DNA of 62,269 nt, filler included, from 4 parts of 4 records of this genome joined end to end with filler, not necessarily neighbours in it, one strand, 5' to 3'; shown: positions 29,571 through 38,294, numbered from the whole stretch's first letter. Program-made: numbers and translations. Notes: generated from the letters alone by a model not told the origin.

Positions 29571-30584
29571 ATGGCAGGACAGGCAAGATCCGCGAGCCGC
29601 GGCTACGATATTATCGGCGATATTCACGGATGCGCTCATACCCTGGTCCGGCTGCTCGACCGGATGGGCTACCGCAAGATAAACGGTGTTTATGAGCACC
29701 CTCGGCGCCAGGCTATCTTCATTGGTGACATTATTGACCGGGGACCCCGCATCCGTGAGGCCCTGCATCTGGTCAGGGATATGGTCGAGCATGGTTCCGC
29801 CCGCATCGTCATGGGGAACCATGAGTACAACGCCCTTGGCTACTGCACCCGTGCCCGGCCGGGCAGTGGCAAGACGTTCCTGCGTGAGCACAACGCCCGC
29901 CACGACCGGTTGATTCACGAAACACTAGAGCAATTCGAACATCATCCTCACGAATGGAACGAATTTCTGGAATGGTTCTACACCATCCCCCTGTTCATCG
30001 ATGAGCCGGATTTCCGCGCGGTGCATGCGTGTTGGGACAGCGACCTGATCACGAAATTCAAGGATAGTCAGGGTGGCGCCTGTATCGATGACGATTTCCT
30101 CCATGCATCCGCGGCGATCGAGTCGTTTGCCGGTCAGGTTATGGACACGCTGCTGCGAGGCACCGATCTGCGGTTGCCACGGGGTGTGAAGATTACTGGC
30201 AAGGACGGTTATGTCAGGGAGTTTTTCCGCACCAAGTTCTGGGCCGACAACCCGGAAACCTATGCCGACGTGGTGTTCCAACCGGACCCCTTGCCGCAAG
30301 AGGTGGCCCGCCGAGAACTGACTGAAGTCGAACGCAGCCAACTGATCAGCTATCCCGCTTCGGCCCCACCGGTTTTCGTGGGGCACTACTGGATGGAAGG
30401 TGAGCCGGCACCGCTGAAACACAATGTGGCCTGTATCGACTTCAGTGCCGTCAAATACGGCAAGCTTGTGGCGTATCGACTGGATGGCGAGCGCACCCTT
30501 TCTCGTGACAAATTTGTCTGGGTGGATGTTGAACGGCCGGAACAGCCGGATTACCCCACCAGCGAAGACAGCGTGGCGAGGTAG
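29571..30584 (+). CDS. Metallophosphoesterase (PPP/ApaH-like)
   Basis: GDIHG, GDIIDRGP, MGNHE, GHYW. Confidence 0.9.
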   Translation: MAGQARSASRGYDIIGDIHGCAHTLVRLLDRMGYRKINGVYEHPRRQAIFIGDIIDRGPRIREALHLVRDMVEHGSARIVMGNHEYNALGYCTRARPGSGKTFLREHNARHDRLIHETLEQFEHHPHEWNEFLEWFYTIPLFIDEPDFRAVHACWDSDLITKFKDSQGGACIDDDFLHASAAIESFAGQVMDTLLRGTDLRLPRGVKITGKDGYVREFFRTKFWADNPETYADVVFQPDPLPQEVARRELTEVERSQLISYPASAPPVFVGHYWMEGEPAPLKHNVACIDFSAVKYGKLVAYRLDGERTLSRDKFVWVDVERPEQPDYPTSEDSVAR

Positions 30585-30587
30585 CCT

Positions 30588-31463
30588 TTGTACCGCATCA
30601 AACAGATTGACACCGACATCGACCTGACCGGCTTCAGTCGTTGGCTGAAGGAGCAGGGGGTGGGGCACAGGATCGCCGAAGAGGGCGACTTTCAGGTGTT
30701 GTGGCTTGAAAATCCCGAGCACACAGAGCCGGTGTTGCAAGCCCTGGAACGGTTTCTGAATGAACCCAGCGTGCAGAACGCTGTCAATACGACGGCACAG
30801 TCTCCGGTGTTTGTAGGCGGGCGTTGGCAGCCATCGCCACGTCACGCGCCGATGGTACTGGCCACGATTGCCTTGGCGGTGTTGGTGGCCTGGATCACAG
30901 CGATGGGGCAGAACCAACTGTCCACCCTGCTGATGTTTGTTGACCCCCGGTTCTATGACCTTGGCACCATGGCGGATCGCCTCCAGGCACTGTCTTCAAC
31001 CTTGTCCGGTGGACAGGTCTGGCGCCTGATTACCCCGGATTTCCTGCATTTCAGTTGGACTCACATCATCTTCAATTCGGTCATGTTGTGGTTCCTGGGC
31101 AGTCAGGTTGAGTGGTTTGATGGCCGCGCCCGTTTGTTCGTGCTGTTTTTGGCGACCAGTCTGCTGTCCAACGGGTTGCAGTACATCGTCAGTGGGCCGT
31201 TGTTTGGAGGGCTGTCCGGGGTTGTCTATGGCGTTCTTGGCTATTGCTGGCTGAGCCAACGGCGAGTGCCCCGTTTTCAGTTTCCACCCGCTCTGGTGAC
31301 GTTTGCCGTGGCCTGGATGGTGATTGGTTTTACCCCGTTTACCGAGATGGTGGGATTGGGGCGGATGGCAAACGAAGCGCATCTGGGCGGTTTTGTGGCT
31401 GGTCTTGCCATGGCGGCGATTTTGCCGGTACCAAAAAAAGCCCCGCGAAATCGCGGGGCATGA
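30588..31463 (+). CDS. Rhomboid intramembrane serine protease (GlpG-like)
   Basis: WRLITPDFLHF..HIIFN, GGLSGVVYG, AHLGG; TTG start. Confidence 0.92.
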   Translation: MYRIKQIDTDIDLTGFSRWLKEQGVGHRIAEEGDFQVLWLENPEHTEPVLQALERFLNEPSVQNAVNTTAQSPVFVGGRWQPSPRHAPMVLATIALAVLVAWITAMGQNQLSTLLMFVDPRFYDLGTMADRLQALSSTLSGGQVWRLITPDFLHFSWTHIIFNSVMLWFLGSQVEWFDGRARLFVLFLATSLLSNGLQYIVSGPLFGGLSGVVYGVLGYCWLSQRRVPRFQFPPALVTFAVAWMVIGFTPFTEMVGLGRMANEAHLGGFVAGLAMAAILPVPKKAPRNRGA

Positions 31464-31521
31464 AAAGAGCGTATAGCTCCTGATGAGAGAGACCAAATGA
31501 ATACGACCTTCGTCATTTGGT
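31433..31521 (-). ncRNA. Putative Fur-repressed PrrF-like small RNA (~89 nt)
   Basis: Own promoter overlapped by a Fur box, 5' hairpin, single-stranded CUCUCUCAUCAGG core, minus-strand terminator GCCCCGCG-ATTT-CGCGGGGC-T7; no ORF. Confidence 0.8.
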
Positions 31522-31523
31522 GA

Positions 31524-31542
31524 GTTAATGATAATCATTATC
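31524..31542. promoter_or_regulatory. Fur box, 18/19 match to consensus
   Basis: GTTAATGATAATCATTATC versus GATAATGATAATCATTATC; overlaps the -10 of the minus-strand promoter TTGACA(31557-31552)-18-TATCAT(31533-31528). Confidence 0.92.
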
Positions 31543-31602
31543 GTTTGCTATTGTCAACGGTTTTCCCCCTATTTTTTTGCGAGCGAATGACTGGAGAGTG
31601 AC

Positions 31603-31902
31603 ATGACTTACGAAGAGCTGATCAAACGGCTGGATCCGGCGGTTTATCAGAGCCTCAAGCGCGCCCTGGAACTTGGCAAATGGCCGGATGGTCGCAAACT
31701 GAGCGACGAGCAACGGTCTGTTTGTATGGAGGCCGTTATCTATTACGAAGATCATCACAACACACCGCTCGAAGAACGCGTAGGGTATCTGGACCGTGGT
31801 GTAAAGGCAGGAACCGCGTGTGATCCCAGCGTGTCACGCACGGCCGGGAAGTCGTCAAACGGTTCGGCCGGCTCGGATCAGTACTTTGAGGTGAAGTCTT
31901 GA
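31603..31902 (+). CDS. yeaC: YeaC/DUF1315 family protein
   Basis: VYQSLKRALELGKWPDGRKLSDEQ..CMEAVI motif. Confidence 0.85.
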   Translation: MTYEELIKRLDPAVYQSLKRALELGKWPDGRKLSDEQRSVCMEAVIYYEDHHNTPLEERVGYLDRGVKAGTACDPSVSRTAGKSSNGSAGSDQYFEVKS

Positions 31903-32741
31903 CTGCACTGGTCGACGTGACCGGCCGTCTGCGCAAGATGCCTGCGGAGCCGGGTGATCCGGTCAGCTATACCCTACGGGTGGGCGATACCCGCATACCG
32001 CTGAATGAGATGGTGGGCCGCCCATTGCAGTTTGATTTTGAAGGCGTGATACGCTGCATAAACTGCGACCGTAAGACCAACAAAAGTTTCAGCCAGGGCT
32101 ACTGCTTTCCCTGTTTTCGTAAGCTGGCTGCCTGCGACACCTGCATCATGAGTCCGGAGAAGTGTCATTACCACGAGGGCACCTGCCGAGAGCCAGAGTG
32201 GGGGGAGACCCACTGCATGATTGAACATGTGGTGTATCTGGCCAATTCGTCCGGTCTCAAGGTGGGTATAACCCGAGGTTCCCAGGTGCCAACCCGCTGG
32301 ATTGACCAGGGGGCCGTCGACGCCATCCCGATGGTCAGGGTTGCCACTCGACAGTTGGCGGGTTTTGTTGAGGTGGCGTGTAAAAAATACGTCGCGGATC
32401 GCACCAACTGGCGCGCGATGCTGAAGGGGGATGTGCCGGAACTGGATCTGGTTGAGGAACGTCGTCGCATGCTGGAACAGATTGCCGACGATCTGTCGGA
32501 GTTGCGAATCGCCCACGGCGAGCAGAGTATCCGGGCTGTCGATGAGGACGGCCTGGCACTGAGTTACCCGGTCCAGGTGTGGCCCGAAAAGGTAAAAACC
32601 CATAATCTGGACAAAGCGCCCACGGCGGAGGGGGTGCTCCAGGGCATCAAAGGGCAGTACCTGATCCTGGACACTGGCGTTATCAACATCCGTAAATACA
32701 CCGGTTACGAAGTCCGCTTCCGGGTCTTCCCGAACCACTGA
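31899..32741 (+). CDS. DUF2797 family protein
   Basis: CINC..KSFSQGYCFPC, VYLANSSGLKVGITR..TRWIDQGA, GIKGQYL. Confidence 0.85.
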   Translation: MTALVDVTGRLRKMPAEPGDPVSYTLRVGDTRIPLNEMVGRPLQFDFEGVIRCINCDRKTNKSFSQGYCFPCFRKLAACDTCIMSPEKCHYHEGTCREPEWGETHCMIEHVVYLANSSGLKVGITRGSQVPTRWIDQGAVDAIPMVRVATRQLAGFVEVACKKYVADRTNWRAMLKGDVPELDLVEERRRMLEQIADDLSELRIAHGEQSIRAVDEDGLALSYPVQVWPEKVKTHNLDKAPTAEGVLQGIKGQYLILDTGVINIRKYTGYEVRFRVFPNH

Positions 32742-37145: not shown

Positions 37146-38294
37146 ATGGCTACAAGGTTGATGTGCAAGACTCTGGGAGCGGCCTGTCTTGGACTATCCA
37201 TGGCAATGTCCGCCCCCACGGTGTTTGCGCTTGCAGATATCATCGAAACCCCATCCCGGCCCACCACGCTTGCGCCAGAGAAGCTGCTCAACGATGCCGA
37301 CACGGCGGGTAAAAGAATTGTGGCAGCCGGTGAGCGTGGTCACATCATTTTTTCGGATGATGAAGGTGAGACCTGGGTGCAGGGTGAGGTTCCGGTATCC
37401 GTGACACTGACTGGCGTAGACTTTAGCACTGAGAAGCATGGCTGGGCAGTTGGTCACAGCGGTGTTGTGCTTCATTCAGACGATGCGGGCGAGAGCTGGG
37501 ACCTTCAGTTGACCGGTATCCGCGCTGCCGAACTGGCGATCGAGAGCCGCCAGGAGCAGATCGATGAAATGGAGCAGCGGTTGGAGGAAGCGCCGGAGGA
37601 CGAGAAAGATGACCTCGACTGGGCCTTGGGCGACCTGTATTTCTCGCTTGAAAATCTCCAGGCGGATCTTGAAATCGGCCCGGTGAACCCGTTCCTGGAT
37701 GTCTGGTTTGAAAATGAAAACCACGGTTTTGTTGTCGGTGCCTATGGTATGTTCCTGCGCACTAAGGACGGTGGAAAGACCTGGAAGGACTGGGCGCCCA
37801 AGCTTGATAACCCCAGTAGTTTCCACCTGAACAGTATTGGCCGTATTACTGGCGGCGGCCTGGTTATTGTCGGTGAGGCGGGGCAGATCTTTGTGTCCGT
37901 CGACGGCGGCGACAACTGGGAAAAACGTGAGAGCCCCTATGAAGGCTCGCTGTTCGGGGCGATCGGAACCGGAAATGTGAACGAGATACTCGCGTTCGGT
38001 TTGCGTGGGAACATCTTCTTTTCGTCCGACTTGGGTAGGAGCTGGAAAGTGGTGCCCAGCGAGTCGGACGCAACCCTCAATGATGGCGCGGTGTCCGAAG
38101 ATGGCCGTATCACGTTGGTTGGCAATGGTGGCGCAGTGCTAATGAGCTCCAACGGTGGAGAGACCTTTCGTCCCTATTTCCGGGATGACAGGGAAGGGGT
38201 GATGGATGTCGTCCCCGTATCGGGAACCAATCTTCTGGTTGTGGGCGAGGGTGGCGTAAAGCACACCGACGCCCGCGGCAAGAATCTTCAATAA
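37146..38294 (+). CDS. YCF48-related BNR/Asp-box beta-propeller protein
   Basis: Repeated SxDxGxTW boxes; signal peptide; acidic helical insertion. Confidence 0.88.
   Translation: MATRLMCKTLGAACLGLSMAMSAPTVFALADIIETPSRPTTLAPEKLLNDADTAGKRIVAAGERGHIIFSDDEGETWVQGEVPVSVTLTGVDFSTEKHGWAVGHSGVVLHSDDAGESWDLQLTGIRAAELAIESRQEQIDEMEQRLEEAPEDEKDDLDWALGDLYFSLENLQADLEIGPVNPFLDVWFENENHGFVVGAYGMFLRTKDGGKTWKDWAPKLDNPSSFHLNSIGRITGGGLVIVGEAGQIFVSVDGGDNWEKRESPYEGSLFGAIGTGNVNEILAFGLRGNIFFSSDLGRSWKVVPSESDATLNDGAVSEDGRITLVGNGGAVLMSSNGGETFRPYFRDDREGVMDVVPVSGTNLLVVGEGGVKHTDARGKNLQ

Follow-up and report, generated by a model that had tools for sequence, protein, structure and literature searches.

A conserved minus-strand small RNA unit and its Fur-box promoter in Marinobacter and its relatives

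Analysis of the window, by which we mean the whole stretch of 62,269 nucleotides that was analysed, supported an independent and conserved small RNA (sRNA) unit on the minus strand, whose promoter carries a Fur box, in the interval between a rhomboid protease ORF and a DUF1315 ORF (Table 1). The promoter, fold, terminator and conservation described below indicate that this is very probably a real sRNA gene, and the position and quality of the Fur box make control of the RNA by Fur highly likely. The reading that we prefer, and consider probable, is a single-copy, trans-acting and Fur-controlled RNA of about 89 nt, which represents a diverged offshoot of the PrrF lineage and for which petA is the best candidate target. 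As far as can be told, the gene, its architecture, its sub-threshold distribution through the family and petA as its lead target are new: nowhere in the limited collection of literature searched was an sRNA of Marinobacter described as PrrF-like or Fur-regulated, and the accessible part of PMC8233155 contained nothing relevant to an iron sRNA of this genus.

Promoter, Fur box and fold of the RNA

The ORFs flanking the unit, which encode NAD kinase, a metallophosphoesterase, the rhomboid protease, DUF1315, DUF2797 and PepN, were all read on the plus strand, in agreement with the earlier note, which had described a complete small transcription unit on the opposite strand. A consensus scan of positions 30500–32500 revealed TTGACA-18-TATCAT, the minus-strand promoter proposed in that note, as the sole promoter-like site (shuffled sequence gave a mean of 0.8 sites), and no plus-strand promoter passed the scan of this interval. 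The Fur box that had been drawn over the -10 hexamer with 18 of 19 matches was recovered on the plus-strand reading and proved unique, being the only site with three or fewer mismatches in the 62,269 bases of the window, where 0.02 such sites were expected by chance. It was also highly conserved in the 77-row alignment described below, where much of it was invariant in every row.

The consensus used was the 19-mer of E. coli, and its fit to the Fur protein of Marinobacter was assumed. When 2.8 Mb of a complete Marinobacter genome (G002) were scanned with it, the promoter of the homologous sRNA was the best match, with 2 mismatches, and the next sites had 4. Few clearly iron-related promoters were found in these 2.8 Mb: besides one ExbB-family and one ferritin-like gene, the sites with 4–5 mismatches belonged to unrelated genes, and this mixed outcome does not validate the consensus for the genus.

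Table 1 Features of the sRNA locus, in coordinates of the window.
Feature	Position	Strand	Remarks
Rhomboid protease ORF	30588–31463	+	Last 31 nt (31433–31463) antisense to sRNA 3' end
DUF1315 (YeaC-like) ORF	31603–31902	+	Divergent from sRNA promoter
-35 hexamer TTGACA	31552–31557	-	TTGAC invariant, 77/77 aligned rows
-10 hexamer TATCAT	31528–31533	-	18-nt spacer to -35; promoter 11/12 matches overall
Fur box, palindromic, across spacer and -10	31524–31542	.	18/19 on +, 17/19 on -
Predicted sRNA, ~89 nt	31433–31521	-	5' end inferred from -10, 3' end from U-tract
Stem-loop 1, RNA nt 1–30	31492–31521	-	8 base pairs, formed in 96.2% of cells; both sides changed in 2
CU-rich single-stranded seed CUCUCUCAUCAGG	31479–31491	-	Unpaired in MFE structure; conservation 0.994
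Stem-loop 2, RNA nt 41–57	31465–31481	-	5 base pairs counted, formed in 91.8% of cells; both sides changed in 4
Intrinsic terminator	31433–31459	-	8-bp all-G+C stem 31459–31440 and U7 31439–31433

With the inferred start 7 nt past the -10 hexamer, the 89-nt RNA folded with a minimum free energy (MFE) of -34.8 kcal/mol, far below that of shuffled sequences (mean -18.1, sd 3.1; z = -5.36), none of which was as low among 200. The fold consists, in order, of a 30-nt 5' hairpin, an unpaired CUCUCUCAUC, a second, small hairpin formed by AGGAGC and GCUCUU, a linker rich in U and a terminator that was called on the minus strand only, so that the 5' hairpin, the unpaired stretch and the minus-only T7 terminator of the first description were all recovered by the fold and the terminator scan. 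The motif GGUCGU in the apical part of stem-loop 1 was near-invariant, and the 10-nt core of the seed, UCUCUCAUCA at positions 31490–31481, was invariant in 77/77 rows. The RNAalifold consensus departed from the fold in the middle of the RNA, where CUCU pairs with GGAG, and stem-loop 2 is therefore less certain than stem-loop 1 and the terminator. The 3' end is of a form typical for Hfq, with the U-rich linker followed by the G+C stem and U7.

Conservation, covariation and copy number

Related loci were gathered by their DUF1315 protein from one genome per species, which gave 80 loci, all but a few of them from Marinobacter; the closest named relative by this protein was M. algicola DG893, with 96% amino-acid identity. 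A comparison by blastn across Marinobacter, which the earlier note had proposed as a check, located the element in 77 of the 80 Marinobacter/Oleiphilaceae loci, where it stands upstream of DUF1315 on the strand opposite to that gene. The three loci missed by blastn (L073, L077, which is labelled as a Halomonadaceae MAG, and L080, with 276 nt of upstream sequence) were all without the seed; the miss at L073 cannot be judged, since its 34 nt of upstream sequence are too short for the element.

The window and 76 of the loci were aligned with MAFFT, the incomplete locus L070 being left out, and conservation was calculated region by region as the share of rows that carry the majority base. Conservation was 0.815 in the first 60 nt of DUF1315, fell to 0.566 in the spacer between the DUF1315 ATG and the -35 hexamer, and rose to 0.833 in the promoter and Fur box, 0.893 in stem-loop 1 (mean column), 0.787 in stem-loop 2 with the linker and 0.881 in the terminator, before falling again to 0.549 in the 60 nt beyond the terminator. 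The high conservation from the -35 hexamer to the U-tract, against low conservation in the flanks, indicates that the conserved island is exactly the transcription unit.

This distribution bears on the reading that the Fur box serves the plus-strand genes DUF1315-DUF2797-pepN and that the RNA-like features are incidental. The box lies 61–79 nt upstream of the DUF1315 ATG, and the plus strand offers a weak TTGCTA-19-TATTTT at that place; this sequence did not pass the promoter scan, nor did any other on the plus strand. The spacer on the ATG side was the least conserved there, whereas the RNA body stood at 0.79–0.99 with covariation; the RNA start and the DUF1315 ATG lay between 55 and 219 nt apart, depending on the locus, and the same Fur box and seed occurred in genomes without an established link to DUF1315. 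The variable distance, the poor conservation on the ATG side and the lack of a plus-strand promoter make it very improbable that the box acts for DUF1315-DUF2797-pepN only, although it may affect these genes as a side effect.

Covariation was assessed for 21 specified pairs, counted on the MAFFT alignment, which is not structure-fitted. These pairs were formed in 96.1% of cells, compared with a mean of 93.2% in shuffled alignments, and 9 of the 21 had changed on both sides (49 cells); none of 500 shuffles reached any of the observed values. Sliding the partner columns by 1–3 positions reduced pairing to 35–54%. Compensatory changes were present in all three helices, and the terminator stem was paired in 98.8% of cells, with three pairs changed on both sides in 10, 24 and 8 sequences.

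The same loci were informative about two other readings, a cis-antisense RNA complementary to the rhomboid mRNA at its 3' end and a gene for a small protein (ORF 31277–31516, 79 aa), which together we consider extremely unlikely. The 31-nt overlap with the end of the rhomboid CDS, already pointed out in the earlier note and confirmed by the ORF reading, would suit an antisense RNA here, yet over the 76 loci the arrangement relative to the upstream ORF varied from a gap of 265 nt to an overlap of 34 nt, and 31 of the 76 had no overlap at all; antisense pairing with an overlap so variable cannot be the conserved function. An AUG at nt 6 of the RNA begins a frame extending through the terminator, but this frame lacks a Shine-Dalgarno sequence because the leader is only 5 nt long. 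Moreover, the frame from the AUG to the seed was 2, 0 and 1 (mod 3) in 37, 22 and 7 loci, respectively, with no AUG there in the remaining 10, and an AUG that shifts phase relative to an invariant seed does not mark a coding frame.

A covariance model (R1) built from the alignment gave a single match in the window, at 109.1 bits, and one strong match in each of two whole genomes, G001 and G002 (106.3 and 92.3 bits), where the next best matches did not exceed 24.8 bits.

Predicted targets and mode of action

Targets were predicted in G002, which is not the window's own genome but carries the same seed; 2.8 of its 4.19 Mb (67%) were covered, with 2363 genes obtained from a home-made caller based on codon usage. 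The seed segment (nt 27–48) was scored against positions -80 to +40 of each start, the score being the sum of the hybrid energy and the energies needed to open each partner. Short accessible segments were used because plain full-length RNAduplex runs returned meaningless duplexes over the whole length.

The scan placed petA first among the 2363 genes both by total and by hybrid energy. Its site, GGUGCCUGAUGGGAGAGAACCAU at -24 to -2, had a hybrid energy of -31.2 kcal/mol, compared with -25.3 for the next best gene, and only 1 of 89 shuffled seeds reached the genome-wide best energy of petA. The product, of 197 aa with UCR_Fe-S_N and Rieske domains, is the Rieske Fe-S subunit of cytochrome bc1, and the operon was identified as petABC from the genes for cytochrome b and then cytochrome c1 that follow.

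We compared the regions upstream of petA in 20 further genomes of the family. The site (C/U)(C/U)UGAUGGGAGA just before the ATG was kept in 13 of the 14 genomes with a seed RNA, and sequence further upstream was unrelated between species. A duplex of -23.9 kcal/mol or lower was formed at petA in 13 of these 14 genomes versus 1 of 7 without a confident RNA (Fisher p = 8.5e-4, phylogeny ignored), where the seven include one genome with a doubtful pattern hit and one with a Fur-box RNA of a different seed. With the seed of each genome itself, the petA duplexes ranged from -17.7 to -29.6 kcal/mol. Half of the site (GGGAGA) would be conserved in any case as a Shine-Dalgarno sequence, with which any CU-rich seed pairs; the informative part is CCUGAU ahead of it. 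As judged from sequence, petA is the best and the only conserved predicted target, and petABC may on balance be a true one. The accessible part of PMC3377617 gives petA a value of -1.41 in its iron-limitation tables for Pseudomonas fluorescens Pf-5.

Among the remaining genes of the top 10 were an aconitase and three others whose products (FixS/CcoS, a fatty-acid hydroxylase and an EgtB-like enzyme) we take to be iron- or haem-related proteins, together with pgi, a PpiD-like gene and icmF/tssM, which are unrelated to iron. The earlier note had expected the canonical iron-sparing targets sodB, acn and bfr, and these did not emerge. The sodB gene, located in five genomes, ranked 129 of 2363 in G002, ferritin-like genes ranked 496 and 2298, and two aconitases ranked 429 and 680; the aconitase at rank 8 was set aside, as its site was without conservation in the 20 other genomes. 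A fourth gene on that list, sdhC, lies at 3.235 Mb of G002, outside the scanned 2.8 Mb.

Several further candidates were tried and rejected. Two-site pairing with sodB, in which the seed UCUCUCU would meet AGAGAGA and the apical GGUCGU would meet ACGACC before the ATG, ranked 129 by seed and 276 by loop among the 2363 genes. The scan of G002 with the loop segment showed no iron-related pattern, and its top match, upstream of DUF1315, was an artefact, namely the complement of the sRNA gene itself. The best non-self site within the window, at 38144–38166 on the plus strand (-30.1 kcal/mol), lies inside an ORF and far from any start.

Target prediction is the weakest link of the argument, and a Fur-controlled RNA whose main job is something other than iron sparing through petA (uptake, motility, other genes, or activation) has to be weighed. 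The failure of the canonical iron-sparing targets to be predicted, the presence of the iron-unrelated pgi, PpiD-like gene and icmF/tssM so high in the ranking, and the near-invariant apical GGUCGU with no explained partner all point that way. Set against them are the petA site, which is first-ranked, conserved and co-occurring with the seed, and the iron- or haem-related members of the top 10, and we consider another main function rather improbable.

Under our preferred reading of a trans-acting RNA with petA as candidate target, Fur-Fe2+ would bind the box over the -10 hexamer and spacer when iron is sufficient and would block transcription by sigma-70. When iron is scarce, the RNA would be made and would end at the intrinsic terminator, its iron-dependent expression and exact ends being predicted from the promoter and U-tract. 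The invariant single-stranded UCUCUCAUCAGG could then pair with ribosome-binding sites, possibly with the use of Hfq, and pairing with the petA leader would block translation of petABC and spare iron. Marinobacter species are heterotrophs common in the sea, an environment often poor in iron. The analysis provides a specific gene that can be put to the test, together with a covariance model and, in petA, a concrete first target.

Relation to PrrF and to other Fur-controlled RNAs

Over the whole window, no Rfam family matched at its gathering threshold. A permissive search of positions 31300–31700, which included the PrrF covariance search suggested in the earlier note, gave PrrF (RF00444) as the best of 22 matches, at 39.5 bits (E = 2.3e-5), with model positions 1–150, the whole of the model, aligned to 31432–31557 on the minus strand; part of this score does not come from the RNA, since the Rfam model takes in the promoter and terminator. 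The gathering score of RF00444 is 90, so the sRNA has likely been missed by annotation, as had been supposed. The PrrF core given in that note, CUCAUCAGG, is present in the Rfam PrrF consensus. The characterization given there of a shorter and divergent iron-sparing sRNA of PrrF type is supported in part: PrrF was the best match and the RNA is shorter, but the list of expected targets was not supported in the one genome scanned.

The alignment to the PrrF model matched the -35 hexamer, the Fur box, the GAC...GUCG apex, a block UCUC.CUCAUCAG.GCUA and the terminator, and to this block of the model, in which the conserved PrrF core is UCUCCUCAUCAGG, aligned the window counterpart UCUCUCUCAUCAGG. 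The two RNAs share a sigma-70 promoter whose -10 hexamer is covered by a Fur box, the same order of parts (Fur-box promoter, hairpin with the GAC...GUCG apex, seed, terminator) and a single-stranded UCUC(C/U)UCAUCAGG core, and PrrF occurs in the same order, the Pseudomonadales, as the relatives of the window, with graded intermediates. They differ in that the first hairpin of PrrF (model positions ~37–57) is deleted here, leaving one 5' hairpin instead of two, which accounts for the shorter Marinobacter RNA, and in that the CUAAUCACGG block 3' of the PrrF core gives way to GGAGCUAUACGCUCU, from which stem-loop 2 (hairpin GGAGCU...AGCUCU) is formed. Two PrrF copies per genome, in tandem or dispersed, are typical of Pseudomonas without being strictly defining, whereas the window, G001 and G002 each hold a single copy. 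The top predicted target here is petA, and the sodB, ferritin and aconitase genes rank low or have sites without conservation.

These differences raise the question of whether the RNA is an independently invented analogue of PrrF, with a CU-rich seed and a Fur-box promoter that arose by convergence. A score of only 39.5 bits when gathering requires 90, the missing first hairpin and the replacement of the CUAAUCAC motif by a different second hairpin would fit such an origin, and unrelated sRNAs repeatedly show anti-Shine-Dalgarno seeds and Fur boxes. The parts nevertheless follow one another as in PrrF, and searches in related genomes revealed intermediates. With R1, 151 genomes sampled from the same order gave four strong matches above 96 bits and a tail at 29–45 bits, and several RNAs in this tail are preceded by a Fur box and carry UCUC(C/U)UCAUCA(G/A)GCUAAUCAC. 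Scores against RF00444 formed a gradient from 159 down to 35 bits: three true PrrF RNAs scored 127–159 bits, intermediates (among them two pairs and one triple tandem array) 43–70 bits, and RNAs of the Marinobacter type 35–49 bits.

Within the family, none of 31 genomes had a match to RF00444 over threshold, and 17 of the 31 had one below it; R1 gave eight matches of at least 57 bits in the same genomes. A pattern composed of the Fur-box core, 25–55 nt and CUCUCAUCA was found in 16 of the 31, compared with one hit in the reversed control. All variants read out carried a near-perfect Fur box and the seed, and the motif CU(A/U)(A)UCAC was, with these two, common to the variants. Sister lineages retain CUUCACAG, and in G171 and L291, which belong to the same order and family, a hairpin and seed of the Marinobacter type stand together with this PrrF-type motif, the hairpin in G171 being the first one and the motif forming a PrrF-like block. 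Convergence is unlikely in the light of these mixed forms and graded scores; the variants point to divergence within one lineage, and by sequence comparison the sRNA is probably of PrrF descent.

Since none of the 31 family genomes passes RF00444 and at least 16 carry the Fur box and seed, annotation under-reports iron-responsive riboregulation in the Pseudomonadales. We suggest tentatively, as a possibility open to some doubt, that PrrF is one branch of a superfamily of Fur-box-driven sRNAs spanning the order Pseudomonadales, with at least 4–5 structural subtypes in single, tandem and triple arrays, all below the Rfam threshold and united by the seed CUCUCAUCA, and that the ancestral co-conserved target of this superfamily would be the petABC leader and not sodB. 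If the superfamily reading is true, iron sparing in marine Marinobacter would act first on the respiratory chain.

The logic of Fur-repressed, base-pairing sRNAs is textbook knowledge. RyhB of Enterobacteria is a Fur-repressed iron-sparing sRNA that pairs at ribosome-binding sites, and by analogy the RNA proposed here would follow the same regulatory logic; the two are distinct in family, in that the 22 matches of the Rfam search of 31300–31700, taken to E = 10, included no RyhB. ArrF of Azotobacter vinelandii, reportedly near enough to PrrF to count as its homologue and reported to act on sodB and feSII, is another parallel as a single-copy, Fur-controlled RNA of PrrF type outside Pseudomonas aeruginosa. 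NrrF comes from a betaproteobacterium, belongs to an unrelated sequence family and was absent from the 22 Rfam matches, but according to the accessible part of PMC5586341 it is Fur-controlled and represses petABC (cytochrome bc1) in Neisseria meningitidis, the same operon as predicted here; the resemblance between the two RNAs is a functional one only.

petA leader and seed-complementary sites

The gene order around petA, which encodes the Rieske Fe-S subunit of cytochrome bc1 and is the top predicted target, is rplM-rpsI-petA-petB-petC in the complete Marinobacter genome used for the target scan (G002), followed by a GST-like (SspA-type) gene and sspB. A gap of 236 nt separates rpsI from petA in this genome; therefore, petA probably has its own leader. 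The strong complementarity of a 23-nt stretch in the window to the sRNA seed is probably due to chance, since the stretch is internal to an ORF (37146-38294), ~130 nt upstream of the stop.

Locations of the features analyzed
Feature	Location	Strand	Basis
petABC neighbourhood, G002	L207 13273-18117		gene order
23-nt stretch complementary to sRNA seed	window 38144-38166	+	-30.1 kcal/mol
PrrF-like RNA triple array	L096 889-1061, 1112-1286, 1411-1576	+	
PrrF-like RNA pair	L095 1264-1428, 1500-1663	-	
PrrF-like RNA pair	L094 1499-1674, 1721-1893	-	
GGUCGU, stem-loop 1 apex	window 31501-31508 (RNA nt 14-21)	-	alignment

Variation among related loci

At window 31433-31463, the rhomboid protease ORF takes its final ~10 codons from the complement of the sRNA terminator in the window's clade; in related species the end of this ORF varies: it stops short of the sRNA 3' end, coincides with it, or reaches as far as 34 nt into the sRNA. 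A locus of another sampled genome, G167 (L287), contains a terminator-ended RNA with a near-perfect Fur box upstream (AAATGATAATGATTATTATTTG). Its single-stranded part reads UUUCCUCUGGUGUAUCACAGC in place of the CUCUCAUCA seed, and the petA leader of G167 has no CCUGAUG site.

Comparison with PrrF

In other Pseudomonadales genomes, PrrF-like RNAs occur as tandem pairs and, in one case, as a triple array. These RNAs reached only 43-70 bits against Rfam PrrF, below the gathering score of 90, and thus would likewise escape annotation. GGUCGU was near-invariant in 77 aligned sequences, despite its apical, mostly unpaired position in stem-loop 1. The loop-segment target scan of G002 revealed no convincing pairing partner for this motif. 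PrrF carries GUCGGA at the matching position.
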